Assembly: GCA_001761425.1 (NCBI GenBank)
Contig: CP012986.1
Coordinates: 420,001-452,000 of the forward strand
Origin: Candidatus Saccharimonadota bacterium
GTDB lineage: Archaea > Nanohalarchaeota > Nanosalinia > Nanosalinales > Nanosalinaceae
DNA length: 32,000 nt
Reading direction: 5' to 3'
Position numbers and translations under genes: made by a program. Shown in pieces: positions 1-30,230 of the stretch (position 1 is the stretch's first letter; the number at the start of each line of letters is the position of its first letter). The notes beneath the pieces were generated by a model, which did no database searches, was not told the DNA's origin, and was given only the letters and a program-made list of their open reading frames with translations.

Positions 1-253
1 TCCTGGCTTCTCCTGATTCTTTCGGTTCGACTGTGATTTCTTCCTGTACGTCTATGATAGATTGGAGGTCTTCATCGGGCTGTATTGTGTAGGTGGTGGT
101 CTGGTTGCCTGTGTTTCTGATATCGGCAGTGTATATCTGGGTATCTCCTTTGAAGATCACGCTCAGTGATGGTATGTCGCTGTTGACGCTGAGGCCTGCA
201 CCTGAGCTTGCAAGCAGTAGTAAGAGGCCTGTGATCACTATTTTCTTTTTCAT
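1..253 (-). CDS. Secreted protein, 5' part only (84 codons, continues beyond window start)
   Basis: Manual reverse translation from ATG at 253..251 gives MKKKIVITGLLLLLASSGAGLSVNSDIPSLSVIFKGDTQIYTADIRNTGNQTTTYTIQPDEDLQSIIDVQEEITVEPKESGEAR. The basic n-region plus hydrophobic core is a Sec-type signal peptide. The mature part resembles the CARDB/NEW3-type beta-sandwich segments in the membrane-proximal part of the giant protein. The start overlaps the giant-gene stop as ATGA. It is absent from the ORF track because it is open at the window edge. Confidence 0.75.
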   Translation of the reverse strand, partial: MKKKIVITGLLLLLASSGAGLSVNSDIPSLSVIFKGDTQIYTADIRNTGNQTTTYTIQPDEDLQSIIDVQEEITVEPKESGEAR

Positions 254-3200
254 TTTATATCCATCTCGTCTTTGAGGCTGTCGATGTACATGTTTGCCAT
301 TTTGAATCTTCCTTCCTTGAGTTTGTTCTCCGCGAGCTGAAGTTCTAGGTCTTTGTCCCTTGTGTCCTGTCCCTGTTCTTCTCTTCTCTTGAGTTCCTGT
401 TTGAGTTTGTCAACTTCTTCTGAGAGGTTGTGGTATTTTTCCATTTCTTCGTCTGGTATTTTGTGTGGGTTGTGGTATGTAGGCCTGAAATCTACGAACC
501 ATGGCTCTCCGTCGTTGTAGTTTGAGTTCTGGATCATTCCTGTTCCTACGTCTTCGCTTGAGATTCTCTTGGCGAATTCCTGGCCGTATTTTTTCTCTAC
601 ACGGTTTATGTCTTCCATGGATTTGGTTTGCATCTGTATTTCTGTCATGATGTTTCCGGAGATTGCTTGTTTGAAGTCTGCTGTGACTTGTGATGCCATC
701 ATTAGGCCTATGCCCCATTTTCTGAATTCTCTTGCTCCTTTTTCGAGTGCTTCGTATCCTCCTTGTCCTCCGTATTCTTCTAGGAGTCTGTGGACTTCGT
801 CGAATACGATTAGCATCTCTAGGTCTGGGCTTTCTTCCCATTCTTTGTCGAAGATTTGATCGATTATGTTTCTTACTGCTCCGTCGAATTCTTCTGTCGT
901 TAACTGGTTTAGTGTGAATACTGTGATTTCTCCGTCGTTCTGAAGGTCTTCGAAGTTGATTTCAGGGTTTTCTGAGCTGATTTCCTTGATGACGCCTCTG
1001 TATGGATGTGCGTCTTCCTGTGCGTCCATTTCGAACCTGTCGTAGTGTTTCTCCAGGTCATCGTCCTTGAGTTCTTTCACGAATCCTGTCCACTGTGCTG
1101 TTGGGTCGAAGACGATGACCGGTACATCATTTTCTAGAGCTTCCTCTGCGATGACGTTGGCTGTTACAGATTTACCTGATCCTGTGGATCCTGACACGAT
1201 TGCGTGTGTTGTGAGGTCGCTTGGATCGATGAATGCATCTTTCTCTGTCTCTGCGATCTTTCCGACCCAGTAGTTGTCTTCTTCCTCCGGTGGAAGCCTG
1301 TCGTAGTCCACTGGGAAGACATAGCGTGCCTCTTCCTCCTTCCTGATCCAGTAGTACTGGTAGCCTTTCCAGCCGACGATACTGATCAGGATTACAGCAA
1401 GTATCAGGATCGTTGCCCTGGTCTTGAACGGGGTCCAGAACCTTTCCTCGATTACTACCGTTGCCGAATCAACTACTGTCTGGTTCTTAGCGTCCGCCAC
1501 CGTTTGAATGTAATAGCTGCCTGAAGGGATCTCCTGTGTTGAAAGCTCTCTCTGCATGGAAGTGGCTTCTTCTATACTGACAGAATCATTCAGTTCTCTT
1601 ATCACCTTGTCAGTATCGCTCTCCCTGAAGTAATGTGTGAAGTTTATCTCTACAGGAGTTTCCATAGTGATCTGGCTCACACGGGTTTCAAAGCTGAAGT
1701 TAGAGCCAGGCTCTACATTCTTCGTAAGTGACTTCACGTTTAGATCGAAGCCATCTATACCTTCTCTAGCCACAAGGATCGACTGCGAACTGTTCACGGT
1801 GGTATTGCCGTACTCGGCTACAATCTGGCCTGAATACGTCTTGATCTCTGCATCTTCAGGGATAACAGCCCTTAACTGGGTTATAACTGTCGAGTTAGCC
1901 GACACATTGATTTCAGTGTTATCAGGTCCAAGGAGCTCACTTATCTCGCCTTGGATCGACATATCAAGTTCTATACTTTCCTCCCTGTTGTTATCTATCT
2001 CAAGCAGGAAAGTTCTCTCCTCGCCACGGAACATGATAGGCCTGAAAATCCTTGGTGAGAGAACAAACGGCTCGGTAGCTATGTCTGACTTGTTCTCCTG
2101 CTCGGACTGGTTGCTGTCCTGACCGGTATTTGGAAGGCCTCCGCCTGTTGAGCCGCCGTTTTCATCCTGCTGTTCTTCGCCTCCTTGCTGATTCTGGTTG
2201 TTATCTCCATTGTTTCCGCCGTCATTGTTTTGAGGTGTGTAGAGTCTTTCAACGATGTAGGAGGAGGTACTGTTGGTTGAGGCCTGAACAACGTTTTCGC
2301 TCATGTTTACGGAGGAATTGAGCTGGTTCCATTCTGAGGTACTGCAGTTGCTGACATCGTCGTATTTACACTTGAATATCCTGAGGTTGTCCTCTTCTTC
2401 CTCGTCGAAGTCTTCGGTCTTCGAGTAGTTGAGCTGTACAGAGGCCTCTCCGAAGCTCATGTTGCTGTCGATGGAGACTCCTGTGAACGATCTGTTTGTA
2501 GTATCTTCCGGATGCTCAAACTCAACTGATTCTCCTGAGTCTACAGGCGAGACATTGACAGGATCAGATATGTCGTCTTCGACACTCGAGTTCACGAATT
2601 CGATATTGTGCACTGGCTCGTTTGTCTCCTCAGGCCTGTCAGGCTGAACATCCATGTTCACATCGTAACTCCTGTTCTGAACTTCTAGATCGTATTCTTC
2701 GCCGGTCGATTCCTCGATCAAGGTAGTATTTGATGAAGGCCTCTCGAACTTGAAATCAGTGTTCACACCGTCCATAGAGCCGGTGAAGTTTACGAATGGA
2801 GCAACAGATACAGGCAATTTTACCTCTCTTACATTGCCGTTTACATCCTGTAGGCCGACGACTACATCGTAGTCTCCGTCCCTGCCTGTTTCAGTCAGGT
2901 TTCCTGTGTAGAGGCCTTCACTCTGTTTGTTCATTGAAATGTTTTCTACTTCTGTGTCGTTCTCGAGGTAGATTCCTGTGGCGGAGACATTGTTGATTCC
3001 GACGTTGTCAGCGGCTTTTACACTGAGACTGGCGTTTTCTCCCTGGTTGACATTGTCGCCGTTTTTCGAAACTATGAACGGAGCTGTGACATCTCTGTAC
3101 TTGAGGCCTTTCCTGTCTTTGATCTCCAGGTTGTCTTTGAGGGCTGTAAGCTCGTAGCTTACGTTAACAGGGTTTTGATCGATGCCTGGTGCTTCACAGT

Positions 3201-6200
3201 TGATCTTCCAGAGGCCTGAACTGTTTGTGTAGGTGGAGTTCGTGTTTGAGCAGGTTTTTCCTTCAATTGAGGCCTTCCATTCTGAATCGTTGATCTGCCG
3301 TGTGTTGTTGTATGTGATGTTGGCGTAGGCCTGTACTGTGTCTCCTGCGGTGATGTTTTTCTTTCCGTTCTCTGCTGTGATGTTTTTGATATCCATTACG
3401 ATGTTTCTGACGTTAAGTGTTGTGTTCAGAGTCTCCAGTTTCTCGTTTTCTGGGTTGAAGAACGTTACTGTGCTGTTGTAGGTTCCTGGATCTGAACTGT
3501 TGAATCCTAGTTCTATATTTTTTAGTTCCTGTGTCTCTACGGTGCTTGCGGAGACAGTGATATTTTTCTGTATATCGAGTAGATCTGAGTTTTGTCCCTC
3601 GTAGATCTGGAGGAATAGTTCGCTTGTTTTGTTGTTGCTTACTGTGGCTGTATCGAATGTTCCGTAGGTTTCAGCTGCGACTGTTGTGTTGATGTACTCT
3701 GGGCTTATTGAGAAGTTCGTGGAGTTCGCTTCTCCGTCTGGGGAGATTTCCTCTCTATCGGTATTACCTCCGAGATCTTCTCCTGCTACGCTCTTTCTGC
3801 CTCTGCCTGTGTTAACGTTTAGGGTCTTGAATCTGTATTCTGAGCTTAGGTTGTAGAATCTGGACTGCTCTATACCAAGTTTGAAGTCGTAGGCTCCTGC
3901 TTCAGGTGGGAAGAAGCTCAAGTTAGCGCCTCCGTTTTCTCCTGTGTCAACGGAAGTCAGTTTGTTGACTTCGTCGAGGCCTACAAGCGTAGAGACGTTC
4001 TCTCCGGTTCTGTTGTGTTTGAAAGTCCATTCTATTTCTCCGACGTTTGAACCACATCTCTTCCTGTATTCGGAGATATTGTACTGTTTAAGCTCCCAGA
4101 GGTCTGTTGAACTGTATTTTTCAGTGTAGCTACAGGCCTGGGAGCTGTTTATCTCATCGTTGAAGCTTAAGTTGAACGGTAGTTCGCTCTGGGTCCAGAA
4201 GCTGACCAGTTCTGCTTCATCGAATGTTTTTGTATCTCCGCTGAATGCTTCGTAAGGCCTTCTGATCTTCACTGTATCGTTTACTGTCATGTTCGTGATG
4301 TTGGCAAGTAATGCGTTTCCGCCGAATACTCCTGATGTTCTGTTGCCTTCTACTTTGTCATCGAATCCTGGTTTTTCGCCGACGTATGTGCCGTTTGCCA
4401 GGCATGATCCGCTTTCGACACAGCTTTCATAGTCGTTGTTTACTGGAGCGGTCTCGAAACCTGTCTCTCTGTCCTCGTTACCTGATCCGAGAAGCTCACG
4501 GCTCATAAGCTCCTTCCTGTCTTCAAGGTCGGTATCTTTAACCACGATGCTCTCAACTGTGATTTCTCCGGAAGTGTTTACTCTGAGGCCTTTTACCGGT
4601 CCGTCTTTGAATTCTACTTCTTTCTCTGCGGATTGTTCTGTCGCTATGTTGTTCCAGCTTCCGTTTCTTCTGTAGGAGAGGTTCCAGCTTCCAGAGCTGT
4701 TTGTTTTGATCAGGAGTTTCTCTCTGTCTTCTAGGGATGTGTTGGTTTCTGCAAGGCTTTCATTTATTTCAAGGCCTTGTTCAGTGCTGTTGATTGTTCC
4801 GTTTGTTGTCCATTCTTCCGTGCTGAGGTTGATACTGTAATCTGGTTTTTTCTGTCCGTATCCCAGGTTGAAGCTGTAGTCATTGATCCCTCTGTCGGTG
4901 AAGGCCTCCCGTATTCTCGGTGTGATCTCTATGCCTGTGCTGTTGGAGAAGTTGAAGGCCTGTGTTTCCTCCGTCTGGTTCCAGAATGGTTCTATACCTG
5001 TTCTTATCTCGAGTTGTTTTTCTGTGTAGTTTGAGTCGAAGTAGTTGTCTGCTGAGGCTTTTACCGAGATGTTTTCGAGGCCTATTTCTGTACTGTTTTC
5101 TGGGTTCCAGGTGACTTTGCATTCTCCTGTTGTCTCTGTGTTGTTTGTCTGGCATTTTCCGATGCTTCTGTCCTTGAACTTGAAGTAGGCGGTCGCGTTC
5201 TCTACTGAGAGGCCTCTGTTTGTTACTTTTGCTGTTATCTCTGTATCTGTTGGTTCGCTGAGGTTGTCTCTGTATATTGTTTTGTCGCTGATATCTGTTA
5301 TCTCTGTGTTCAGTGTTCCGCCTACAAACACATTGTTCGTGATATTTGTGTTTGTATTATTGTAGTAGAGTGTCGAGTTGTCCTTGATCTCGGCTTTTAT
5401 CGTGTAGTCTCCGATAGTGGTGTTCTCTGTGTTCCAGGAGACGTTGTACCATCCATCAGGTCCTGTGGTATCGTTTCTCCAGGCCTCTGTGCTGTTGTCC
5501 TCGTATTTCCTGTAAAGCTGTACAGGGTAATCTTCTATACCTGTGGAGGTATTTTTATCCGCTACTCTGAGTGTCAGGTTGACGATGTCATCTTTGGAGT
5601 ATCTTCCGGAACCGTTGAAGCTGAGTTCGCTCCATCCGTAGATCGTCAGGTTGTTCCTGGCTCTGTCAGGTGTGTATTCTCCTTTCTCAGCTGTAGTGTT
5701 CAACTGGTAAGGGCCTAGGCCTAGTCCGTCGGTGTTCCAGAGGCCTTTCTCTCCTGTGCCGTTTGGATCTACTGTCTGGCCGTTGTGTATCCATTTGATT
5801 GTTGCTGATGTTTCGTTGTATGCATCTTTGACTCGCGCAAGTAGCTCCTGTTCGCCGTATCTGTGGACGATTTCTTCAGGTTTCTGTACTGAGATGTTTA
5901 GCTTCTCCGTCAGTTCCACATCTGACTGCTCCTCTGAGTTCTTTACTGGGAGGTACCATGTTCCTGTTCTGTTTTCTGTGATATCTGTCTTTAGGGTGTG
6001 GGTTCCGACATAGTCTTCATAATCTGTATGCCATTTTATCGAGCATGTGCCTTTTGTATCTGTAAGACTTGAGTTGATGAAGTCTCCTTCGTCGTAGAGG
6101 TTACAGCTGTAATCACTTACTTTACTGTTGTTTCTAGTGTTTACTACCTCTGCCTCCGCTGTTACAGTCGAGTTTTTCCTTTCTGTAGTTGAAGGCGTTA

Positions 6201-9200
6201 CCTGGTTGATGTTTATGTCGACAGGATCGTATACCTCAACGATTTTACTGTCGGATGTTTCTACACCTTCACTGTCTTCTGTACTGACGTTCAATCTGTG
6301 GATTCCTGTACTGATACTTTTTACTTCCCAGGAATCTTCTTTACCGCTTCCTATGTTGCTGTATCCGCTTGAAGTATTGATCGACCAGTTAACAGTGTTT
6401 GGAGTAACTTCTGTGCCGTTTTCGTCAGTTATTGTCGCACTTAGATCCTGTATCGATCCTCTTACTAGGTCTGTATCGTTTTCTCTGATGAGGCCTTCTC
6501 TAGGTTTTCTTATATCGACTGAGAAACCTCCTTTTATCTCGACTATGCTTTCACTTGTTGTGAAGTTATCGAAGTACTGGTTCTTGGAGGCCTTTGATCT
6601 GATCGTGGCGTTGACGGGGTTGGAGACATCTGTGTTCCATGTGATGCTACACTGGCCGCTGCTGTTTGTCTCACATGTCCTTGTTGTTTCAAAGTTTCCT
6701 GTGACGTTTGTGATCAGGTCTACTGTTGCGTTCTCGACTCTGTCTCCGTCTAGATCTGTTACCGTGTAGTTTAAGCTTACGTTGTGATCTGGCTGTTCGT
6801 CGTACCAGTACATATCTCTGTCATCGATTTCTCTGTCCACGCTGAGGCTATCGTTCAGTGTTATCTCGATGCTTTCCTGGCTGTCCGTTGCATTGATGTT
6901 TTCTGATTCTTTATCCTGTATCTTCGCGGTCAGGTTGTGAGGACCTAGTTCCTCGTTTCCTGCGTCCCATTCGAGCTCTGCGAGTTCATTTCCTCCTGTA
7001 GAGACGTTTCCTATCTTTGTACCGTTATCATACAGGGCGACATGGTATTCTTCGAAGGCCTTTTTGTTGCTGTCCAGGATATCTCTAACCTCGGATTGTA
7101 GGTTGAGGAGGCCTCTGTATCTCTGACCGGAGTTGTTCAGAAGTTCTACATCTGCTTTCTTGAATACGTTTACATCGACTATCTTAGCGTCCTGACAGTC
7201 TTCGCCTCCACAGTTTGTATTGTCTTGAGCTGTCGCTGTGAACTCTGCTATAAATCTGCCTGAGTTCTCTATACCATTTGTCTCGAGTGTAGTGTACCCT
7301 GTAGATCCTTTCGGAACGTTGAATCCTTCTCCGTCTACGTAGTAATAGTTTTCGTTAAGTAGGTCACTACCGTTGATGGGGCTTTTGGTCCTGGAGATTT
7401 CCACGTTTTCAAGGTCATAGTTACCAAAGCTGTAGATATCGAATTCTGCAAGCTCTGTGCTTTCACCCCACCAGATATCGGTTCTTTCAAGGCCTCCGGT
7501 CTCCTTAAGTACAGGGTTCTTTTTGACCTCGAGATCAAGGGTGTCAGATATCTCTTCTTCAGAGTAATCAGGGTTCACCCATTCCCCGAATTCAGAGACT
7601 CTTCTTGTACCCGGTGAGGCCTTGGAACTGATGTTTACAGATATTGTGGTACTGCAGCTTGAACCGTTTTTGATTTCTCCACAGCTGTAATCTGAGCTGT
7701 TCGTGACTATTCCTTGTTGTGCTAGGGCCTGTTGAATCGTTGTGTTGTAGGATGTAGCAAGGCCTGTATTTTCGAAGGTTACGTTGACATCTGTTTTACC
7801 TGTGTAGTTCTGTGTGATGTTGTTGAACTCTGTTCTGGATGCGTTCATCTCCAGTTTTCCTTCTGTCTTGCCTATGGCTTTGAAGACTTTCCCGAAGCTT
7901 TCTGTCCGGCTTTCCTGTGTACCGTCGGTCGCTGAAACTGTGATATTGTAGTATCCGCTGTTTTCAGGAGTATAATCCGTTGCATAGATGCCTCCTGTCT
8001 GGTTACCGGAGTTAGGTTGCACCAGGTTGAGGTCTGTAAATGTCTCACCAGTGTTTTCTATTGTAAGTTCTGTCTCTGCGATTTCGTTTGTATCAGTTAC
8101 GTTCACTCTGATCTGTGTTGATTCTCTGTTCTGCTCAGGCCTTGTTTCAGAGGCTGTCGCGAATGGGATCTTTGGAGGCTGTGCTGTAATGGCTAGTCTG
8201 TAGGTTGTGTTAGCTGTGTTGTCCGCCTGGTCTGTTACTTTTGAGATGAACGTGTAGGTTCCGTTCGTGGCGTTGAAGTACACAGGCCTTTCAACCAGTC
8301 TGTAGGAGGATTCGTTGTACTGAGGTATTTCCGTAACGTTTCCTGCAGGTCCTTCGTATGATTCGTTTGTTGCGTAAAGTGTTGTAGATAGATCAGTTTG
8401 GTCTGTCGTGTTCTTGAGCCTCCAATCCAGGTACCATTCTCCTAGGGCAGCGTCCGGATTGCCGTCACTGGCGTTCAAAGCATCAAGAGTACCAACATCT
8501 GGCTTGCTGTTGTCTATCTCAAGGCTGTAACCTGTCTCGTTTGTCCATCCTGCCTGGTCTGTCGCAGTTGCCTCGATATCACAGACGGTTTCTTCTGTGC
8601 ATCCGAGGTCTCCGGCCTGATCAACTCTGTACCAGATCGAACTTTTGGTACTGTTCATAGGTTCGCCGTTTATTTTTACGCTGGAAAGATTGTACCTGTC
8701 ACTGGCGTTGACTGTAAAGTTCAACGTGTGATCGCTTCTGACTACATCGTTCGTGGAGTTGGATGTCAGGTTCAGAATTGAGGGCCTGTCGTAATCAACA
8801 GTGTATTCAGCTTCGCTGTTTTTGTCAGTGTTGCCTGCCTGGTCAACAGCGGTGACGTTCACAAAGCTGTCATTATCTATCTCCACTACGCCTTCCCAGA
8901 CACTTTCCGGGTTGGCTCCTGAATTGTCGGTTTCTAGATGGCTGAGACTGTCGTTTTCGGCCGTCAACTCGGTTATTGAAGTTTCAGTATCATCTATCAG
9001 GGTAAGGTTGACTTCAAGATCAGAACTTGGCTTGACAACTCTATCGCTGTCGTTTATAGAGACATCAGTTATTTCAGGGTCTACATCATCGATAGTGACC
9101 TCGACAGAATTGTTTTCGTAGTTATCAGCCTTGTCCTCCGCTGTAACTGTCAGACCACAAACTTCTCTGTTCGCTTCAGTCACACACCCAAGTTCTCCTG

Positions 9201-18200: not shown

Positions 18201-21200
18201 TGAAGTCGCTCCAGGTCTCGTCGATCGTTGATTCGTTGGCGTCGATTCCGTCTCCTGTGACTATTTCTGCAGCGAAGTTGTAGTCGTAGTTGCCTCCGCT
18301 TGTTCTTGTCTTGTCTGTGAGGCCTTCTGTGACGTTGATGTTGATTACTCTCTCAATCAGGATTTTTTTGGTGTCTAGGCCTCCTCTGTAGTAGTAACTG
18401 TCTCCGTAGGCTGAGATGTTGGTTTCTCCTGTGTAGCTTTCAGGGATTGACCAGCTGGCTGAGGGCCCGCTGCTGATGAGTTTGCTTGTGTCCTTGTCGC
18501 TTGCGTTCCAGATGATGTCTTGGCCGCTGACATTTGGATCGGTTCCGCATGACGTGTTCAGATCTGTTTCTAGTGCGACATCGTCTCCCTGTTGGTAGTT
18601 GATACCGGATTCTGCGCTGTTCTCAGGATTTGAAACCTCTACCAGGAGATCGGCGATGAGATCGATGTTCCCCGAGTCTCCGTTGTTGTAGACTTCGTAT
18701 CTTGGATCATTGCTCGAGATATTGACGTCTACAGTGTATTCCTGTGGATCGCGGGTGCAGACAGGATCCCAGTTTAGAGAGGCTCTTCCACTGTCGGTTG
18801 ATGCGTCTTTTCCTAGTTTGTTCTCGTCTATGTAGTATGAGGCGTCTATGTTTGCGTCAACATTGCTTCCAGAGGGATTGATGGCTTCTGTGGTGAGAAG
18901 GCCTGTCTCATCTCTGAAGTATTCGTCTCCGGTCGAGATGAACTCTGGTCTGATAACGTTTTTGATGAAGAACTGCCCTGCGTTTGTTGTCGTTGATTCG
19001 TATCCTGATCTGGATGCTGTAAGGCCCCAGGAACGGTTTCCTACGCTGGATAGAGTGTCTGGGTCGAATGTACAGCTGTAGTTACCTGAACCGGTGCTTG
19101 AAGGGTTACAGTTTCCTGAAGGTGTGTCAAAGCTTACTGTTGCATCGCTTATGTTGTTTCCTAGCTGGTCTTTGACTTTGGCCTTGAGTTCGGTTGTCAG
19201 GTTGTATGATCCCCTTGTCTGGGAGTTGTTTTTGTAGACGTCTTCTGTTTCATAGATTTCAGTCGTAAGACTTCCTCTTACTTCTCTCGTATATGTCTGG
19301 GTAAGGTCTTCGTATCCATTTTTCTCTAGGACGATTTTTACTTCGTGTTCTCCTATTGTAGACGCAGCAGGGATATCGAATGAACCTGTGTCAGTATCAT
19401 CTATCGTTCTCTCTTTCTTTTTGATCCCATCTAGGTAAACAGTGTAGGTTACGTTGTCTATATTGTTGCCATTGCTATTGATGTTTGAAATCGAGTATTT
19501 CGGGGTTGTTGTGCCTTCACTTCCGTTAAAGCGGAAGTAAGGTCCGTTGTCCAGGGTGACATCTGCCTCGATTTGGGATTCTACTGATATGTTTGCAGAT
19601 TTTTCCTGTTCGTAGACATAGTCAGAGTCCTGGACTGAAATGTTCCATTTGTAGGTGCCTGTGGACAGATCGGTTGAAGGATTGTACTCGCAGAAGTACT
19701 GGTTTGCTTCACTGTACTTTTCCAGGCACTGGCCATCAGGAGTATTGAAACTAACTTGATCTACAGAGATGTCGTTACCTCTCATATCTTCCAGAGTAGC
19801 TGTAAGGTTATCATTTTCCCTAGTCTCCAGAGAAGCATTGATATTGCCGTTGACATCTACATCAGTTGAATAGGAGAACTGCTTGTACCCGTCTTTATCA
19901 ATGATAATTTCCGCATTCACAAGCCCCACGTCCTCGTTTTGAGCAACAGAGAGGTTCTTGGCAAGGCCTCCGGAGTCAACTCTGCCGGTTTCGTCCGGAT
20001 CATCGAGCGAGAATGTGTACGAGACGTTGTCTAGAGGCCCGCTGTCGTCTCTGATATCTGTTACGTTGTATTCTACCTGGCCAGGGCCTTCAGCTCCGTT
20101 GTACCGGTAAACTGTCAATGGCTTGATACTGGCATCTGCCACTATTCCTGTACCGATAGTGATCTGGCCGTTTGCATCTTCTTGTCTGTAGTTCTTTCTT
20201 TCCGCATCAACACTCCAGTTGTACGTTCCTGATGAGAGACTGCTGTCAGGACTATATTCGCATCTGTAAATGTTTCCATCCTGGTATGTCTCACGGCAGT
20301 AGCCTGAAGGTGTCAGGAAATCTACTGATGCATCGTCTATCTTTGTACCGTCACTACTCTCCAGTTCAGCACTCAGGTTTACCACGTCATCTTCCGGGAA
20401 TACCGTGGCCTTACTGGTCGAGAAAGATGGCTGGATAAGGCCCAAGATTGTTATGTTGGTTACAAACGTTTCATTGTTGAAATTTTCCTTCTCCAGAGTG
20501 ATATTTAGCCGACTGTCTCCAAGAGGATCGGTTTCCTGGATCCCAAAGCTACCTTCCTTACTGCTATCGCTTATATTTCCTTCTGGAAGATTGTCTATGT
20601 AAGGCCATGAAAGATCGTAACTCGGATTTACAGGATTGCCCAGGTCGTCCCGGATGTTGGTATAGTTGTAATTCAGAGTCCCGTTCTGGATACTGGAGTA
20701 CTGATGATCCAGACCACCGTACTTGAAGACCTCAGTTGAAGGAAAGTTCCTGTCCAGAGAGAAGTTGCCGAGAAGAGTGAAGTTCTCTGTGTCAGTACTG
20801 CTCAAATCATAGTAATTATCAGGGTCAAAGGCCTGAATACTCCAGGAATGATTACCAAGATCCATGTCCAGATCACTTAGCTGGAAATTACAGTAACCGC
20901 TCGAGTTAGGATTCACAATATCATAGTCCGACCCGTCAATGTAGAGGGAACAGAAAACGTTGGAGTTGCTGGAGGTCAACACCTGATTATCCTCTGTATC
21001 GTTAACCTGTGCCGAGATAAGGCCTTTCTCCCCTGTCCGGTCAAGTTCAAGGCCTGAGCCTGAAGTTACCGTGGTCTCTGTAGGGTGTGGGGATACTGCG
21101 AATGATTGAGTGCTGGAGTTTTCCGAACCGTGTATTCTGCCTGATTCATCATAGTCGTAATACTCCACTTTGTATTCTACTGTTCCTGTCCAGCTCTTGT

Positions 21201-24200
21201 CTGTAGGAAGATTCAGGACCACACTATCCGTTGCCTGGCCTGAGGTCTGTCTGCTCTCAATTTTCTGCCATCCGGAACCGTTATCCGCCCACAAGGTAGC
21301 GTTCACTTCGTCTCCTTCGTCATCGGTGAATGTCGCAGAGATCTCGAATTCTGTCCCCCAGGGGCCTGAGGAAGGATCAGCACTTACATCTTCTACATCT
21401 GGCGCGATATTCGTTATACCGCCGATCCTGTAATCTGTAACGTTGTGAGAGGCCTTTGAATTACCGATCTCCGGTTGAATTAATCTGAACTCCTCTATGT
21501 TTCCATCGCTTCCATATGCTTTGCATACAGACCAGTTTCTCTCATCTCCTGATACGTTCTTGAACTCTTCACAGCCAGCTTTTTCTGGAGTTATACCTGT
21601 GTAAGTGCCGTTATCGTTCCAGTCCACTTCAAGGAAAGCATCCTCTACAATCCTAGAGCCGTTGACAGGGATGTGAACTGTTATGTTTTCAAATCTGGTA
21701 TCTGTCTTTTCTGTCGTCCTTGATACAGTTACGTTTCTCTCAGCCGGTGAAGTGCCGCTCAGATCTCCTTTCGTCACATTTACAGGTGAGGCCTCCTTGG
21801 TGTTATCATACCAGATATAGTCAGAAGACCTTGGCCTGGCAAACTCGAATCTCCAGAATGCCTCGCTGTCCGGAAGCAGTATTGAAGGCCCTCCATCGTT
21901 CTTGAACTCTCTACCGTTGAACACGACTTTCTGGCCGTCAGCAACGTTTTCTTCCGCCCAGATTCTGTTAATCTTCATTGACTCCGCAGGCGTTTTTGTG
22001 TAGTTAATTCTGTCTGCTTCATACATTATCATGTCTTCACTGCTGAAGCCTTCGGTCTCTGCCCATCTTGTGATCCCGCTCTCATAGTCATAAGTCCTGG
22101 AAACGTTGTAACTGTAACTGACCTCAGGATCAGAGACCCTGACAAGGCCTCCTGAATCAGAGCTAAATGTAAAAGGTACATCACAGGACTGGCTCTCACA
22201 GTTCGAAAGCACGTTATTGAATTCATCCGTCAAGGCCTGACCGTTCACAATTGAGGAACCTATGAAAAGGCCTGAGCCAGTCCATTCATCTCCGTTTCCG
22301 CCTATATCTATTCCAAGGTTCTGGGGGAGGTTGTAGAAGTTCAGGACACTGCTCCCGGATGTCGAGATACCGATCTCATCTCCTTCAGCATCACGTATAT
22401 CTCCTCTCTCAAGCTCTTCAACGCCGTTAGATCTCTGGTACTGTTCTATTACCTGTCCGCTGGAGTTCATTAAGGTAAGGCCTCCATTACCAAGGCCTGC
22501 GAGTACTTCAGGTCCCGGAGACTTCGAGATATTACCTGATTCAAGACTTTTCACTTCATCGCCAAGACTCTGGTTCCACAGCACCGTCAGGTTGCTGTCA
22601 AGCGCTATAACGTTTCCAGAGTCCGTACCTGTGATTATCTCATCGGAGGAACTTTCCTGTATATCCTCTAGAGTAGTGGATCTGAACCAAGAGGAACCGT
22701 CAACAGGGAAGCTCTCGATCAAGTTTCCTGTAGAATCAATGACCTCAATACTGTCTCTGGTGCCGACAACAACCTCATTACCCGTACTGCCAGGGATCAC
22801 GTTCCCTATATCCACGGAAGAAGTCCTCACATCCGTGCTGTAGTTCCAGAGCTGGTTTCCACTGCTGTCAAGGGCCACAATAACTGAAGGATAACGGGAA
22901 ACGACGATCTCATCACCTACTGTAGAACCGAAGAACTCAACACGTGTCATAAGACCTCCGGAAAGCTTCTCATACCCGTTACTGTACACGTAGGAATCAG
23001 CTCCTGAGTTCTCATCTACGAGAACGTTAAAGGCCTCCGAAGAACTGTTCTCCAGGAAGTAAGTGATGTTTTCATCCTCTGCCAGATCATCGCCGTCAAC
23101 AAGAGTCCTTACAGTATCGTAGGCCAGGCTCGTGTTACTCCAGACCCGGGCGTCCGCACCTGAGGCCTTATCTGTAAACCTGTCCGTACTGGATGTCTCC
23201 AGGCCTGAGGAAGGATCAAGGCCCAGGTAGTAAGAGGTTTCACCGCAGTTCTCACAGCTCAGTGTAGCGTTATCCGAGTTCAGGTCGTTTTCGTCTACCT
23301 GTATCTCTGTCAACGAGTAATTGATAGGTCTTTCCTCAGCTCGGATTTTGTATTCTCCTTCCAGACTGTTTCCTCCACTGTAAGAGTCTCCCTGTGTATC
23401 GTTGTCGTACAGGATGTTGTAACTGTCTATACTGGATAAGGTGATGTTTGTGTTTCCATCAATATCCGAGCTGTTTACTCTTGTGTATGCGGTCTCAGAT
23501 TTTAGGGATGTGTTCGTCCAGACCCTTGCCATGTAGTCGTTTCCGATAAGCTCTTCTCCTGAGCCATTGTTGTAGTACGAGTGACCGCTACTTCCGTCTT
23601 CGGTCAGCAGACGGTAGTTTTTAGAATCAGAACAGCTTTCACAGCCGAACGAGATATTATTTCCTGTTTCAAGGGCCGAGTCCGGTACTGAGGCCTCAGT
23701 CCAGTCGTATTCCAGGGATGAGTTAGTGGTTACGTTTACCATGTAATCATAGGGTACTTCTACCTGCTGGGTTCCGTTAAGAAACTCTGAGTAGGCTCCG
23801 CCTGTGGAATCGTCGCCTCCCAGTTCGTAGTAGTCGGTAGAGTTACAGCTATCACAGTTGAATAATATCTGGTCTTCGCTAAACTGGCTTGGAGGAACAT
23901 CTGCACTCGCTGTTGTAAAGGAATCGTTGCAGGAGACGATATCCGTAGTATTCATTTCGTACGTTTCATCATCTACTCCTACACCGGTAAACTGGAGGCC
24001 TGAAGGATCTCCCACAGCACAGACTGGGGCCTCTAATTCTGCCTTTTCAGCCTCAAAGCTGGAGACATCTAATGCAGAAAGATCAAATATAGGAGATCTG
24101 GATTCAGAGTCGTTACACCCAACACAGGCAGAGTCATCGACACCAGAATCATGAATCGATCTGGTATCAACGCTGGAGGCCTTGATCTTTGACTTGTCAA

Positions 24201-25971: not shown

Positions 25972-26030
25972 AGTCCTCTTGAGAGTACTTCTTAACCGGG
26001 TACTTTTCGTGATAAGAAAACTCCCTCTCT

Positions 26031-26040
26031 ATTATAATAA
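26031..26040 (-). promoter_or_regulatory. TATA-like box (TTATTATAAT) upstream of giant gene
   Basis: It lies 60-70 nt upstream of the TTG start. A start site about 25 nt downstream would fall near 26005..26013. It overlaps the in-frame TAG at 26029..26031. Confidence 0.35.
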
Positions 26041-26122
26041 CAGTAATATCCGTATTAAAAACCTACTACAGCCTCAGCTTCAAACCTCCGAAAATCACCA
26101 ACATCTCATTATAAGTATAGGA

Positions 26123-26130
26123 AAAAATTA
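26123..26130 (+). promoter_or_regulatory. TATA-like box (AAAAATTA) for a probably leaderless transcript of the 1,292-aa gene
   Basis: It spans -30..-23 relative to the ATG at 26153. No Shine-Dalgarno-like GGTGA/GGAGG lies in between. An alternative element, CATTATAAGTATA, is at 26108..26120. Confidence 0.35.
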
Positions 26131-26152
26131 AACAAAATCAGGCCATACACAC

Positions 26153-29100
26153 ATGTCAAAATACTGTTCCAGAAAAAACAGGAAAACCAAACTCCTGACA
26201 GCATTCACAGCAGTAATACTGCTGCAAGGCCTCACAACAGCCTTTTCATCGCCTAACACTACTCAGATAATCTCTCCAGGCGATTCAGCTAATTTTACAA
26301 TAGAATCCCAGGCAGATAGCTTAACACTGAAAATACAGCCTCCGAAAGAGGCCTCAAAGACATTCGAGATGGATAAAAGTGGAGAAGTGTTCAAGACGGA
26401 GATAAAAGGCGGAAACTTTTCAAGAAAAGGCCTCTACCGCTACAGTTTCGGCAGCGGAACAGATAGATATCCAGAATACGGTAACTTTTCTCTGATTGTA
26501 TCTTCAAGAAATGAATCTCTGGAGAACAAGACTGTAAACGTTTCAGATACTGAGAGCCAGTTAAGTGGCACAGACTTTTGTGACTACAAGACAGATCCTA
26601 GTGACTTTGACTGCGAGTATGAGAACTATCAGGCAGGGATGATTCTTTCCTCTGCAGTAGGCCTTTATCTGAACACCTCCTCCTATGCCCGTGAGAAATT
26701 TGAGAACTTCACGTTTGGATCTTACTCTGACGGTACATGGGGCAGATGTGATCATGCTGAAGACGATTTTGACTGCGAAACAGGTTCAGGTCCTGTGGAA
26801 ATGCCTGCTGGAGTAAGACAGGGATCTCTTATTTATTCTCTTTGGGAGGCCTATGGTTTATCAGGAAACGATACTGTACGTGAACTGGCCTTGAATTACA
26901 CTAAAGGCTCTGCTGAGACATGTGATGTATGGAATAACTCATTTAACTGTACTACTGCCAGGGCACAGGGATTAATGGGTCTTGGATACTGGTCTGCGTA
27001 TGAGAAAACAGGTAATAACACTTTTAAGAGCATAGCAGAGAACTTGACTGAGACAAACTACAGCCATCCTGTAATTGCCTGGGCAAACCTCAAAGGACAT
27101 GTTTTTAACCCGGGAAAATCCTATCTTTCAGAAGCTGAAAACAGGACTAGAGAATGGCTTAACGAATGCCCAAACTGCAGCTCAGACGAATTCAGCTCTC
27201 TGAAAAATACTCTATGGACGGGCTACAAGATAACAGGGAAATACGGATACTACAGGAACGCAGTCAACTTGACAGCTTACTCAGATCACAGATACTGTTC
27301 CTGGAACAGCTCTTCATGTCAAAACCCTTATACTCAAGGCCTCTCAACTTTCAGTTACTGGAAAGCGCTGAAATCTCAGAAAGATCTTCCTCCAACAATT
27401 TCCAGGCCCAGGATAGATAGAGAAACTGTTGTAGGTGAGAACCTGACGGTGAACGCAGAATTTACTGGTAAAATAAAAAATCCTCAACTAGAATACCGCA
27501 GAAAGACAACGGGGAAAAATTCCTGGATCAAATGTGATATCAACTTGTTTGAAGGATGCGAGATACCAGGAGAAAACATTTCACAACAAGCTCCTTACAG
27601 CTACCGTTTTAAGTCGGACTCCTTTTCCTTCCCTAAAAACGGTTCTTTTACGTTCGCCCCATCTCTTGTGAAAAACACTTTCCTGGATGAGGCAAAATCT
27701 TTCAGCACCACAGACCCGGAAAGATGGTGTTCCCCATCAGAGGGAGATTACTCATGTGAAGATACAAGCCAACAAGCCTCCGTGATAAAGGGATTGACAG
27801 ATCTATTCACATTCAACGCAAGTGAGAAAAGCGCAGAATACTTCAAAAACATCTTGGAAAGGCCTTATGTAACTGAAAGTTTTTTCAGCCCTCTATGTAC
27901 CCCTCAGAACGGTTATATGAGCTGTGAGTACGGTGATAGTGCCCTGGAGCGCGATATCGAAGGAAGTGTAAGACAGGGTAAAATGATAGAATCTCTTCTC
28001 TCCTCATACCAGAGGAATGAAGAAGGGAGGACCTATCAGAGAGCTATGAACTATACACTGGGAGGAGCACAGGACTGCGATGTATGGAACAGAACCTATA
28101 ACAAATCATTCGAATGCGGAAGCACACGGGGACAGGCAGAGATGATAGAGGCTTATCTAAAGGCCTATGAAGTGACTGGGAACAAAACTTTCAGAGGAAA
28201 GGCCCTGAACCTTACACAGAAGGCCTTGAATATGACAGAGACTTCCAGGCTTGGTTCAGCTCTCTGGAAAGCAAACTCGTATTTCAACGAGTCTTACAGG
28301 AACCTGAGTATTTCAGATACCGCGGAGAACATATCTGGGAGCTTTGCTGGCTACTGTGTTGATAACTGTACGGTTGAACAGTACCTTGGTTCTTCTAACC
28401 TGTTTAGAGATGCTTTCCTTCATTCGGAGAAAGATTATTCATCTGAGTACCGTTCCTCTGTTTTGAATACTACTGCGGACGGTGAGTGTGGCCCTTACAA
28501 GCAGGATATTTCCTGTAGTTATCCTTCAGGCCAGGGAGGCCTTATGCAGTTGATGTGGGGTTCGGCCTATACGATGCCTGTCGAGTTGAAGGTTGAAAGC
28601 GAGTTTAATGTCAGCAAAGATACTTTGACGGTTGGAAAGGAGTTTTCTGCTTCGTGTTCGGCCCAGAATAATCTTGAAAACACGACTGTAAAGAATCTGG
28701 GCTTCGAGCTTTCTACGAGCGAAGGCCTTGACCTGGTATCTGGTAACAGAAGTTATGACGAAGGCGATCTAGAGTACGGTAATTACAGCGAGGTTTCATG
28801 GAGTATCGAGTCCAAATCTCCTGGTGATAGGAATGTTTCCTGTGCTATAACCTCGGACAGTGGTTACAGGGATGCTATAAACCGGGATATCACTGTCGAG
28901 GAGCAGGAGACGGATGATGGAGGTGAAACTTCCTCAGGTTCGGAGAGCGGTGGTTTCGTGGGAGGTTTCGCCGGTGAGGACAGTCAGCGAAATATTACCG
29001 TGGTTTATACGAACGCCTCAGATATGAACTGGAACAGGACACTTCTCACGCGTCTAGGTATTAACACTACTTACAGGAACTTCACTGAGAGGACAGAATG

Positions 29101-30031
29101 CTTCAGGCCTGTAAGAAAGATTAGAGGAGAAAACATTACTTTAGAGGCTGACAGTAGCTGTACTGGCGATGGAGCAGTTTTAATTGACAGGATACCTTCC
29201 AATGTTTCACTGGAGAAAGGGCGTAGAGTAAATGACCTGGCAGCCGCCAGGACACCGGAGCTGGAAAACAGTACGTACCTCAGCCTGGACTATACAGGCC
29301 TTAACACCTCTAATTTCCGCAGACCGCTCGTGCTTAAATCTAGTTACAGTCTGCCCCCTGTCAGGATAAATTTCAGTGCGGTAAACAACCAGTCCGCAGT
29401 TATCTCAGCGGACCTTAGCAGGGAACAGACCTGTGAAGTATACCGTGAAGGTGAAAAAATCCATTCAGAGGAGACTTCCAAACTGGTCTACCAGCCTTCA
29501 TCTCTGGGTTACGGGAATAGTACATATACAGTAGAATGCGGAGACAGGACCTTTACAAAGACCTTTACAAAAGCAAAAAAAGGTTCTTCAGGGCCACAGA
29601 GTCAAGAGAGTGGACAGGCCCTTCCCTTGATCAGGATAGTGGCTCTGTTATCCTTGTTAGCTGTTTCAGGCTTTGTCTTCGACAGGAGAGAATTTATCGT
29701 GGAAGAGCTGAGGATGAAACTCTTCGAGTACCGATTCCACAGGTTTGAGAAAGCTGTGGAGAATGGTGACACTGCTGAGGCGATCGAGATCTTTGACTCG
29801 ATGTCTAGAGATGTTTCAAAGGAAGTTCTGGAGTCTGACATGGATCTGATGCAGGGATTGATGCTTTACCTCTTGATTGACCTGGTAGAGGAGGGTAAGG
29901 AAGGTGAAGTAAACTTTGATGTTTCAGGTGATCTCGATGAGCTTGTTCAGAGATATGTGAAAAATTCGGACGGTAAATCAGTAAGGCTTGTCAGGGATAA
30001 GTACGAAGAAGCTACTGGAAGAGAAATATAA
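26153..30031 (+). CDS. Secreted, C-terminally membrane-anchored protein with two blocks of cysteine-clamped alpha/alpha-hairpin (toroid-like) repeats plus beta-sandwich domains
   Basis: The ORF is 1,292 aa with an ATG start. The signal peptide is MSKYCSRKNRKTKLLTAFTAVILLQGLTTAFS. The body is sequon-rich, and a TM helix lies near the C-terminus followed by a 116-aa acidic tail without sequons. Confidence 0.9.
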   Translation: MSKYCSRKNRKTKLLTAFTAVILLQGLTTAFSSPNTTQIISPGDSANFTIESQADSLTLKIQPPKEASKTFEMDKSGEVFKTEIKGGNFSRKGLYRYSFGSGTDRYPEYGNFSLIVSSRNESLENKTVNVSDTESQLSGTDFCDYKTDPSDFDCEYENYQAGMILSSAVGLYLNTSSYAREKFENFTFGSYSDGTWGRCDHAEDDFDCETGSGPVEMPAGVRQGSLIYSLWEAYGLSGNDTVRELALNYTKGSAETCDVWNNSFNCTTARAQGLMGLGYWSAYEKTGNNTFKSIAENLTETNYSHPVIAWANLKGHVFNPGKSYLSEAENRTREWLNECPNCSSDEFSSLKNTLWTGYKITGKYGYYRNAVNLTAYSDHRYCSWNSSSCQNPYTQGLSTFSYWKALKSQKDLPPTISRPRIDRETVVGENLTVNAEFTGKIKNPQLEYRRKTTGKNSWIKCDINLFEGCEIPGENISQQAPYSYRFKSDSFSFPKNGSFTFAPSLVKNTFLDEAKSFSTTDPERWCSPSEGDYSCEDTSQQASVIKGLTDLFTFNASEKSAEYFKNILERPYVTESFFSPLCTPQNGYMSCEYGDSALERDIEGSVRQGKMIESLLSSYQRNEEGRTYQRAMNYTLGGAQDCDVWNRTYNKSFECGSTRGQAEMIEAYLKAYEVTGNKTFRGKALNLTQKALNMTETSRLGSALWKANSYFNESYRNLSISDTAENISGSFAGYCVDNCTVEQYLGSSNLFRDAFLHSEKDYSSEYRSSVLNTTADGECGPYKQDISCSYPSGQGGLMQLMWGSAYTMPVELKVESEFNVSKDTLTVGKEFSASCSAQNNLENTTVKNLGFELSTSEGLDLVSGNRSYDEGDLEYGNYSEVSWSIESKSPGDRNVSCAITSDSGYRDAINRDITVEEQETDDGGETSSGSESGGFVGGFAGEDSQRNITVVYTNASDMNWNRTLLTRLGINTTYRNFTERTECFRPVRKIRGENITLEADSSCTGDGAVLIDRIPSNVSLEKGRRVNDLAAARTPELENSTYLSLDYTGLNTSNFRRPLVLKSSYSLPPVRINFSAVNNQSAVISADLSREQTCEVYREGEKIHSEETSKLVYQPSSLGYGNSTYTVECGDRTFTKTFTKAKKGSSGPQSQESGQALPLIRIVALLSLLAVSGFVFDRREFIVEELRMKLFEYRFHRFEKAVENGDTAEAIEIFDSMSRDVSKEVLESDMDLMQGLMLYLLIDLVEEGKEGEVNFDVSGDLDELVQRYVKNSDGKSVRLVRDKYEEATGREI
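26565..27390 (+). repeat. Alpha/alpha-hairpin repeat block 1 (five Cys-pair-headed hairpins)
   Basis: The hairpins are CDYKTDPSDFDCEYENYQAGMILSSAVGLY, CDHAEDDFDCET..VRQGSLIYSLWEAYGLSGNDT, CDVWNNSFNCTTARAQGLMGLGYWSAYEKTGNNTF, CPNCSSDEFSSLKNTLWTGYKITGKYGY and CSWNSSSCQNPYTQGLSTFSYWKAL. The AY..TGN..F signature recalls six-hairpin (alpha/alpha) toroid proteins. The fold is inferred only. Confidence 0.45.
27670..28585 (+). repeat. Alpha/alpha-hairpin repeat block 2 (duplicate of block 1 architecture)
   Basis: The hairpins are CSPSEGDYSCEDTSQQASVIKGLTDLF, CTPQNGYMSCEY..VRQGKMIESLLSSYQRNEEGRTY, CDVWNRTYNKSFECGSTRGQAEMIEAYLKAYEVTGNKTF, CVDNCTVEQYLGSSNLFRDAF and CGPYKQDISCSYPSGQGGLMQLMWGSAY. Confidence 0.45.
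28585..28900 (+). other. CARDB-like beta-sandwich domain
   Basis: The sequence is KVESEFNVSKDTLTVGKEFSASCSAQNNLENTTVKNLGFELSTSEGLDLVSGNRSYDEGDLEYGNYSEVSWSIESKSPGDRNVSCAITSDSGYRDAINRDITVEE. An acidic G/S linker follows it (28900..28990). Confidence 0.4.
29618..29680 (+). other. C-terminal transmembrane anchor of the 1,292-aa protein
   Basis: The helix is ALPLIRIVALLSLLAVSGFVF, followed by DRREF. Frame checked: 29618 is codon 1156. Confidence 0.8.
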
Positions 30032-30038
30032 TGAGTTG

Positions 30039-30064
30039 AGGCCTTTAACTGTTTTTTCAGGCCT
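30039..30064. terminator. Possible bidirectional terminator between convergent genes: two AGGCCT copies forming a 6-bp stem around a T6 run
   Basis: The sequence is AGGCCT(30039..30044)-ttaactgttttttc-AGGCCT(30059..30064). The hexamer is self-complementary, so the two copies can pair. T6 at 30052..30057 lies 21 nt after the plus-strand stop, and oligo-T is the usual archaeal termination signal. The second copy overlaps the RpoK stop codon. Confidence 0.35.
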
Positions 30065-30224
30065 TTACTGTGATAGGAAGTTTTTCCTGTTTCATTTCTC
30101 TCTTGGCGATGTCCATAGGCTCTTCGTCGCCTTCTGTGTCTACGAATGCTGGTGCTCCCATTGCGATTTGAAGGCTTCTTGCGCCCAGGACTCTTGCTTT
30201 CTCGTATCTTGTGAAATCTTTCAT
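30057..30224 (-). CDS. rpoK: DNA-directed RNA polymerase subunit K (Rpo6/RpoK)
   Basis: Hand translation (55 aa, below the ORF-track cutoff) gives MKDFTRYEKARVLGARSLQIAMGAPAFVDTEGDEEPMDIAKREMKQEKLPITVKA. This matches the RpoK/Rpb6 core TR(F/Y)EKAR(I/V).GAR.LQI.MGAP ... (I/L)PIT. ATG is at 30224..30222 and TGA at 30059..30057. The start lies 6 nt downstream of the PAC2-like stop. Confidence 0.85.
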   Translation of the reverse strand: MKDFTRYEKARVLGARSLQIAMGAPAFVDTEGDEEPMDIAKREMKQEKLPITVKA

Positions 30225-30230
30225 TTAGTA

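Follow-up and report, generated by a model that had tools for sequence, protein, structure and literature searches.

SPEARE-type giant proteins are the leading candidates for host attachment and exchange in DPANN nano-archaea. As described by Hamm (2019, PMC6642349), they combine a signal peptide, a huge ectodomain with laminin-G and adhesion domains, one transmembrane (TM) helix close to the C-terminus and a conserved intracellular domain matching ResIII; the protein from SG9, there called Ca. Nanopetramus SG9, was reported to be 8,553 aa in length. Orthologous loci, in which the giant gene is followed by a paralogous ATPase gene, were later reported as SVXNc_0300 and BNXNv_0298 (Reva et al., 2023, PMC10266531). 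In this study, we analysed a stretch of 32,000 nt (positions 420,001 to 452,000 of contig CP012986.1; hereafter the window) and found it to be the SPEARE locus of Nanohaloarchaea archaeon SG9, as 10,253 nt of the window compared with contig Ga0136257_100001 of this archaeon (1,125,078 bp) gave 0 mismatches. The giant gene (250..25971, minus strand) encodes 8,573 aa from a TTG start and is the 8,553-aa SPEARE protein of Hamm 2019, the two lengths differing because the first TTG (25971) lies 20 codons before the second TTG (25911), from which the NCBI call begins.

The giant protein and its pairing with a second ATPase have thus already been published by Hamm 2019 and Reva 2023, respectively. 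Our analysis adds a parts list of five genes, the apparent co-evolution of two ATPase copies, the reassignment of these ATPases as HerA-like and a Woesearchaeota locus encoding a protein of 15,808 aa. The papers searched describe no six-hairpin neighbour, no coiled-coil and zinc-ribbon genes, no concerted evolution, no Woesearchaeota counterpart and no start-codon anomaly, and Reva et al. (2023) make no mention of SVXNc_0301, the coiled-coil gene, the zinc-ribbon gene or concerted ATPase evolution.

The five genes span about 34 kb, roughly 3% of the 1.13-Mb genome. The original prediction had envisaged a cassette of three exported-protein genes; these three are indeed linked, but the set holds five genes, two of which encode ATPases. 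The predicted ATGA stop/start overlap at the end of the giant gene is present (250..253, minus strand), and the downstream open reading frame (ORF), which runs off the left end of the window with its first 84 codons at 1..253 (minus strand), proved on leftward extension of the contig to encode a 625-aa paralog of the C-terminal module of the giant protein (AQV86_02330; L002 10001-11878). Two more cluster genes lie beyond it, one for a very acidic coiled-coil protein of 741 aa without a signal peptide (L002 11913-14138) and one for a protein of 108 aa whose N-terminal part carries a CxxC…CxxC zinc ribbon and whose TM helix is C-terminal (L002 14110-14436). On the other side of the giant gene, a divergent gene (AQV86_02345, AOV94742.1; 26153..30031, plus strand) encodes a membrane-anchored exoprotein of 1,292 aa with a signal-like segment and a later TM helix, in keeping with the secreted, C-terminally anchored product that had been predicted; we refer to it as the six-hairpin protein after its predicted fold.

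Loss of the neighbours in related genomes had been named as what would speak against the cassette; in fact, they are conserved. Nine lineages were checked, namely SG9, L003/L008 (B1-Br10_U2g21), L004, L005/L006, L007 (Nanohalobium sp. DAL-WCL), L012, L015, SVXNc and BNXNv, and in each of them the six-hairpin gene is the immediate neighbour of the giant gene. Its homologs were divergent beside the giant gene in every context fetched, down to 26% identity (L003/L008). For SVXNc and BNXNv, adjacency was read from locus tags and consecutive accessions: the six-hairpin homolog SVXNc_0301 (37% identity) is WEL19328.1 and the small ATPase is WEL19326.1, while in BNXNv they are WEL23156.1 and WEL23154.1, so that exactly the giant gene fits between them in each. 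The six-hairpin homologs of these two strains, missed by the contig profile scan, were found by an exhaustive HMMER search and cluster look-ups; a word-indexed protein search missed them as well as the homolog in L015.

All five genes occur together in six of the nine lineages, one of which has them in altered order. From the giant gene through the small ATPase and coiled-coil genes to the zinc-ribbon gene, the order is kept in SG9 and four other nanohaloarchaeal genomes, the respective products of these four measuring 8305, 625, 756 and 109 aa in Nanohalobium sp. DAL-WCL, 7852, 624, 531 and 109 aa in B1-Br10_U2g21, 9409, 623, 512 and 108 aa in Ca. Nanohalococcus occultus SVXNc, and 8880, 628, 518 and 115 aa in Ca. 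Nanohalovita BNXNv. Between genomes the coiled-coil proteins share 50-60% identity in their cores, and the zinc-ribbon proteins can be aligned cleanly. The giant and small ATPase genes overlap by 4 nt in SG9, DAL-WCL, B1-Br10, SVXNc and the Woesearchaeota contig L013, and by 1 nt (TAATG) in BNXNv. The rearranged cluster is that of L015 (JGI Ga0136447_1000001, 10001..21869), where the small ATPase, coiled-coil and zinc-ribbon genes come before a six-hairpin gene on the other strand and the giant gene, here encoding 9,544 aa, stands last. The outer flanks of the cluster vary by lineage (PAC2/rpoK versus DUF5667/RmuC/SecY), and the conserved adjacency is therefore not merely inherited gene order.

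Part of the cluster extends beyond the nanohaloarchaea. The trio of giant, small ATPase and coiled-coil genes recurs in Woesearchaeota (L013; GCA_021734865.1, JAIPIC010000001.1), where a gene for 15,808 aa, with a TM helix and a HerA-type ATPase encoded at its end, overlaps the gene of a 699-aa paralog by 4 nt; the ATPases of these two proteins are almost identical. About 1 kb past the coiled-coil homolog of that contig, beyond a 157-aa ORF, lies another gene of more than 4,143 aa. A coiled-coil gene directly after the ATPase gene was found in both the Woesearchaeota (E 3e-16) and the Aenigmarchaeota (E 1e-14) contigs, the latter (L014) carrying the ATPase/coiled-coil pair with no adjacent giant gene.

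The two ATPase copies appear to have a history different from that of the rest of their proteins. The small paralog is 55% identical overall to the last ~620 aa of the giant protein, with ~18% identity between the ectodomains and 74-88% between the cytoplasmic parts. Comparing the parts of the two proteins across five genomes, we found that the ectodomain and TM parts are 34-68% identical between giants and 30-56% between small paralogs, with giant versus small at ~20%; the ectodomains are thus orthologous across species and the duplication is therefore old. The ATPase parts, by comparison, are often most alike within one genome. In B1-Br10 (L010) the two copies share 98% of their amino acids, against ~72% to their orthologs, but only 60% of their third codon positions, a pattern that fits conversion followed by strong purifying selection. 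In DAL-WCL (L011) the last ~175 codons are 99-100% identical between the copies at the nucleotide level. These comparisons indicate that the two ATPase copies evolve in concert, as one would expect if they were subunits of the same ring.

Several lines of evidence show that the ATPase is a membrane-anchored, HerA-like member of the FtsK-HerA superfamily. DUF87, the HerA central domain, scores 45-48 bits in both copies (cutoff 23.2), and all 64 positions that are invariant among 56 family members, Walker A and B included, are kept in the copy of the giant protein. A profile search of the PDB gave HerA (4d2i) as the top match (E 1e-10), followed by Sir2-HerA and HerA-NurA complexes, with DotL (E 5e-3) and FtsK (0.03) marginal and no VirB4 structure at E ≤ 1. 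In the AlphaFold2 model of the small paralog (pLDDT 86), a signal peptide, two immunoglobulin (Ig)-like domains, a TM helix, the HerA-type ATPase and a three-helix C-terminal coiled coil follow one another, and the top 50 Foldseek matches of this model are HerA, not VirB4 or VirD4; the Ig-like part also gave weak FixG_C and HYDIN/VesB matches in Pfam. The protein shares Walker A and B with the Sulfolobus solfataricus translocase (4D2I) and the bacterial Sir2-HerA proteins, its best profile and structure matches, but differs from them in that the HAS-barrel N-domain is absent from the model, the TM helix running straight into the RecA-like core, and in its membrane anchor, extracellular Ig-like domains and C-terminal coiled coil. 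No NurA, Sir2, DUF4297 or nuclease partner is encoded in the cluster. The protein is not demonstrably VirB4/TraG and is not a restriction enzyme. PADLOC returned a HerA match (E 2e-15) and a mad8 match (E 8e-18) in the ATPase domain, generic SMC-like coiled-coil matches only for the coiled-coil protein, and none for the zinc-ribbon and six-hairpin proteins. The mad8 model (methylation-associated defence system) covers almost the full ATPase core, at 253..1500 (minus strand) of the window and L002 10001..11875, and equals or beats the best HerA defence model.

In the giant protein the same cytoplasmic domain stands at the end of a very long exported chain, the domains of which were located by Pfam scans of 1,000-aa slices and by self-comparison (all on the minus strand). 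A hydrophobic signal-peptide core with a cleavage-site-like end (LLLLVGAVAGQS; 25921..25971) is kept in orthologs. A beta-propeller-like region (22432..22920; aa ~1018-1180) was recognized from weak Pfam propeller matches and internal repeats, with blades at aa ~230-300 and ~1018-1210; propellers were reported at the same position in SVXNc_0300 (Reva 2023, PMC10266531). Residues 4494-4664 (11980..12492) form a laminin-G/concanavalin-A-like lectin domain (Pfam Laminin_G_3, E 1.9e-17, 64 bits against a cutoff of 27.6). Ig-like modules number in the dozens. Self-BLAST revealed several families of tandem Ig-like repeats, with E values down to 4e-29; the longest run, of the Big_13 type by Pfam, covers aa 4725-5840 (8452..11799), and Big_1 matches were found besides. 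Two membrane-proximal Ig-like domains (1432..2049) are colinear with the ectodomain of the small paralog by BLASTP and show the orthology pattern across genomes described above. They are followed by a single TM helix at aa 8182-8205 (1357..1428; hydropathy scan and sequence), the HerA-type ATPase (463..1272; DUF87, E 1.6e-11) with its Walker A motif GSTGSGKS (1168..1191) and Walker B motif VFDEVHRL (784..807), and a C-terminal cytoplasmic coiled coil at aa 8504-8573 (253..462), colinear with residues 556-625 of the small paralog, which are helical in its model. Between aa 670 and 1012 (~22936..23962), a unit of ~125 aa is repeated three to four times, with one CxxC pair per copy (for example FNCDSCNSTDYYELGG, FGCESCSDSKNYRLL, LSCENCGETSYYLGL). 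These repeats have no Pfam match and may be novel lectin-like modules.

The SG9 protein thus has the architecture of the described SPEARE proteins, including the intracellular ResIII match, but differs from that description in that it has no detected serine-protease or restriction-endonuclease domain. No peptidase or nuclease family was found at E ≤ 0.05 in any 1,000-aa slice, and both assignments were rejected; Reva 2023 (PMC10266531) likewise reported no protease or nuclease domain in the giant proteins. The ResIII match (E 8e-8) covers a helicase-type P-loop only, and DUF87/HerA scores better over the same region, where the HerA_C, AAA_10 and TrwB matches also overlie the Walker A motif. 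What has been called the restriction-endonuclease domain is a HerA-type P-loop ATPase.

The 1,292-aa protein consists of a signal peptide, an Ig-like domain, a first (alpha/alpha)6 barrel (26513..27373), another Ig-like domain, a second (alpha/alpha)6 barrel (27674..28573), several beta-sandwiches, a TM helix (29621..29692) and a conserved, helical cytoplasmic tail of ~110 aa (29693..30028), all on the plus strand. The two helical barrels were seen in the AlphaFold2 model (pLDDT 77), with which Foldseek matched a multi-modular xanthanase (6FHN, E 2e-11) and GH146 arabinofuranosidases (E 2e-6). Across the family, Pfam C5-epim_C was matched by 13 of 13 members and the GH127 catalytic domain by 10 of 13, mostly below the cutoff; the SG9 protein itself scores 14.9 bits against a cutoff of 23.3, and the best member reaches E 2.9e-12. 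A PDB sequence search with the family gave no usable relative. Because of the barrels, the Foldseek matches and the family-wide Pfam matches, the protein is predicted to have a six-hairpin glycosidase-like fold and is a putative enzyme. Like the GH127/GH146 enzymes, the C5-epimerase C domain and xanthanase, it has (alpha/alpha)6 barrels, here two, amid beta-sandwiches; unlike them, it has a duplicated barrel, a C-terminal TM helix and a conserved cytoplasmic tail, which are unusual in six-hairpin glycosidases. Foldseek also matched complement and alpha-2-macroglobulin proteins containing a thioester domain (TED). A thioester reading was rejected, as the CxEQ motif is absent in 12 of 13 family members, including the protein of the window, and in the model the likeness is at the level of the fold only.

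The six-hairpin family is tiny, the exhaustive HMMER search of 1.84 billion representatives having found 71 clusters (50% identity), and its cytoplasmic tail can be aligned even at 26% overall identity. Four members are of a long form of 1.8-2.0 kaa (P0158, P0165, P0173 and P0177). The contigs of these four are exactly equal in length and source to contigs carrying the ATPase homologs P0063, P0080, P0068 and P0061, a circumstantial match which hints that the pairing of six-hairpin protein and ATPase reaches beyond Nanohaloarchaeota. Another long-form member, P0190, is annotated as Woesearchaeota.

The three products in the window had been predicted to share signal peptides, acidic and sequon-rich bodies, related CARDB-like modules and, in two cases, cytoplasmic tails. 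Each indeed has a hydrophobic, signal-like segment at the N-terminus and one TM helix further on, and all are acidic (pI 4.1, 4.9 and 4.8). N-X-S/T sequons are enriched in the ectodomains of the giant (329 observed versus 140 ± 10 in shuffles) and the 1,292-aa protein (52 versus 16 ± 3.6), but not in the small protein (5 versus 2.5 ± 1.3). The remaining points were not borne out. None of the three proteins matched a CARDB profile even at permissive thresholds. The 1,292-aa protein shows no detectable similarity to either of the others, the E values being 0.34 at best against the giant and 1.3 against the ectodomain of the small protein, and the only modules present are Ig-like beta-sandwiches of a generic kind. 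Cytoplasmic parts occur in all three, and in the giant and the small paralog this part is not a tail but a domain of ~340 aa comprising the HerA-type ATPase and the C-terminal coiled coil.

Taken as a whole, the locus is best explained as a host-contact adhesin mounted on an ATPase ring and encoded by all five genes, and we consider this explanation probable. Given the observed topology, homology, conserved clustering and concerted evolution, we infer that the two ATPase paralogs together build a single hexameric ring in the membrane, a hetero-oligomer, and that the five products associate physically. Some ring subunits would carry the 8,000-aa fibre, whose targets on the host would be surface glycans or the S-layer; the ring may have the coiled-coil and zinc-ribbon proteins as cytoplasmic accessories; and the six-hairpin protein may bind or trim host or self glycans at the contact while its tail docks to the same complex. 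ATP hydrolysis would then power the passage of a polymer through the membrane of the symbiont at the contact site. The substrate could be DNA or protein and the direction of transport could be either way, DNA import being the cargo option with the best archaeal precedent. A role in host attachment or exchange, as the original prediction had proposed, would agree with published hypotheses (PMC6642349, PMC10266531). As orthologs are present in cultivated co-cultures (Ca. Nanohalococcus occultus and Ca. Nanohalovita), the hypotheses of a hetero-ring and of a glycan enzyme are directly testable.

Some points weigh against this explanation. One TM helix per ATPase subunit is insufficient on its own for a channel wide enough for DNA or protein, and the cluster encodes no conserved polytopic membrane protein or channel-forming component. 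The six-hairpin protein, being below Pfam cutoffs, may do no more than bind glycans, or its role may lie in the symbiont's own envelope. Adjacent direct repeats can undergo gene conversion without selection for co-assembly. In addition, Ca. Nanohalobium constans has been reported to lack a giant protein (Reva 2023, PMC10266531), and the apparatus is therefore not universal in the phylum. A bolder version of the explanation is possible but tentative. It holds that the locus encodes a DPANN-wide contact machine of five parts, in which a HerA-type ring of two gene-converted paralogs, one bearing a fibre of 8,000-16,000 aa, would move DNA or protein between symbiont and host, in which the six-hairpin (tail-docked), coiled-coil and zinc-ribbon proteins would be physical subunits, and which, as a secretion or uptake system, would be unrelated in architecture to the type IV secretion system (T4SS), the Ced system and the type VII secretion system.

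That the locus is a DNA-uptake machine proper, in which a HerA-like ring imports host DNA in the manner of CedB/CedD and feeds a nucleotide-auxotrophic symbiont, seems doubtful to us. The idea goes back to the original description of SPEARE, which proposed DNA uptake and degradation by an intracellular restriction endonuclease (Hamm 2019, PMC6642349). HerA proteins are DNA translocases (4d2i), and CedD, a membrane-bound FtsK-HerA ATPase essential for DNA import (PMC11823120, PMC11868833), is the best NCBIfam match of both ATPase copies (E about 1e-11). The Ced/Ted systems of Crenarchaeota also resemble this locus in having two paralogous membrane-bound FtsK-HerA ATPases in one system. However, the CedD match, confined to the P-loop region, reaches 44 bits where the cutoff is 600, the CedB model scores 18.7 bits against 700, and the cluster contains no CedA, CedA1 or CedA2 homolog, no CedA-like polytopic protein and no Ced pilins. 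Moreover, in the SG9 proteins an exported Ig-like ectodomain precedes the TM helix, which is not a simple N-terminal anchor. No nuclease domain was found, and the ResIII match is confined to the P-loop.

Reva et al. (2023) viewed the giant protein together with the downstream VirB4/TraG-like ATPase as a T4SS-like 'straw', a channel injecting effectors into the host. The ATPase does share its superfamily, FtsK-HerA, with VirB4 and VirD4, it weakly matches the TrwB, T4SS-DNA_transf, TraC and TraD models, the SVXNc ortholog bears the UniRef name 'VirB4/TraG-like ATPase / HerA helicase', and cytoplasmic bridges have been reported in the SVXNc-host consortium (PMC11001535). Nevertheless, the VirB4 assignment was not borne out for the SG9 protein and we consider this reading unlikely: at E ≤ 0.1 the small ATPase does not match PF03135, the N-terminal domain of VirB4, its scores with the TraC and VirB4 models of NCBIfam are 20-27 bits where the cutoffs lie at 325-590, and the PDB profile and Foldseek searches favour HerA. 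Pfam recognised no T4SS channel or pilin genes (VirB2, B3, B6 or B8-like) in the cluster, although small pilins are hard to detect by sequence.

It is also improbable that the giant is an adhesin and nothing more, a passive fibre or coat whose ATPases, coiled-coil and zinc-ribbon proteins serve assembly, anchoring, tensioning or turnover with no cargo, and whose six-hairpin partner maintains the cell's own glycosylated envelope. The protein is mostly Ig-like or lectin-like, a channel-forming component is lacking, and the sequon enrichment implies that the symbiont's own surface is heavily glycosylated, so that a glycan-active enzyme could act on it. Yet the catalytic motifs are strictly conserved in both ATPase copies, and the ATPase/coiled-coil pair is kept across DPANN phyla, even without an adjacent giant gene in the Aenigmarchaeota contig, which suggests that the pair has an activity of its own. 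Finally, a HerA-based anti-virus defence module merely lying beside an adhesin gene is very improbable, because, despite the PADLOC matches and the Sir2-HerA defence complexes among the closest solved relatives, the cluster has no Sir2, DUF4297 or NurA effector partner, the ATPase forms a single chain with a TM helix and extracellular Ig-like domains, and one of its copies is the C-terminus of the adhesin itself.

With the TTG start, the giant gene and the divergent ORF are separated by 181 nt (25972..26152), as had been predicted for a shared control region; the start codon is uncertain, however, and the gap could be 139 nt. Conserved blocks were taken from an alignment of four orthologous regions, as a sigma-70 promoter/terminator scan is not meaningful for an archaeon. 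One block contains a TATA-like box (TTTTTAATAC; 26052..26061, minus strand), a candidate promoter of the giant gene at the level of consensus, and a second TATA-like box, ATTATAAG (26108..26115, plus strand), is near-invariant and precedes the ATG of the 1,292-aa gene by ~42 nt. The region looks like back-to-back promoters rather than one shared site. A further conserved block, GAGAGGGAGTTTTCTTATCAC (26009..26029, minus strand), holds a Shine-Dalgarno-like GGGAG (26025..26021) followed after 7 nt by ATC (26013..26011). In-frame sequence upstream of the annotated giant start encodes a conserved K/R-rich n-region (TKSTRLRSTLKRT), and no ATG, GTG or TTG occurs across the signal-peptide region of the orthologs in L004 and L005 (around 9850); for these two reasons the giant gene likely starts at an Ile codon (ATC/ATT), the candidate being the ATC at 26013..26011. 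Gene callers shorten the L004 and L005 orthologs by 72-95 codons, because the signal-peptide region has no canonical start.

Core informational genes adjoin the cluster, as had been noted in the original prediction. On the right flank, rpoK (Rpb6, 55 aa; 30057..30224, minus strand) lies 25 nt past the stop of the 1,292-aa gene and is followed by PAC2 (30231..30995) and aIF2-alpha (31165..31920). With these core genes beside it and a flat GC content along the locus (0.42-0.48), a mobile island was rejected; tRNA and Rfam searches of the window gave no match. The order rpoK, PAC2, aIF2-alpha is shared with L004 and L005, and in the window rpoK is overlain by a spurious 95-aa ORF (29947..30234). 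The legend of Fig. 7 in Hamm 2019 gives AQV86_02330 as 3,315 aa and AQV86_04780 as 8,553 aa, while in the database records AQV86_02330 is the 625-aa ATPase and AQV86_02345 the 1,292-aa protein, so the tags and lengths in that legend appear to be mismatched.

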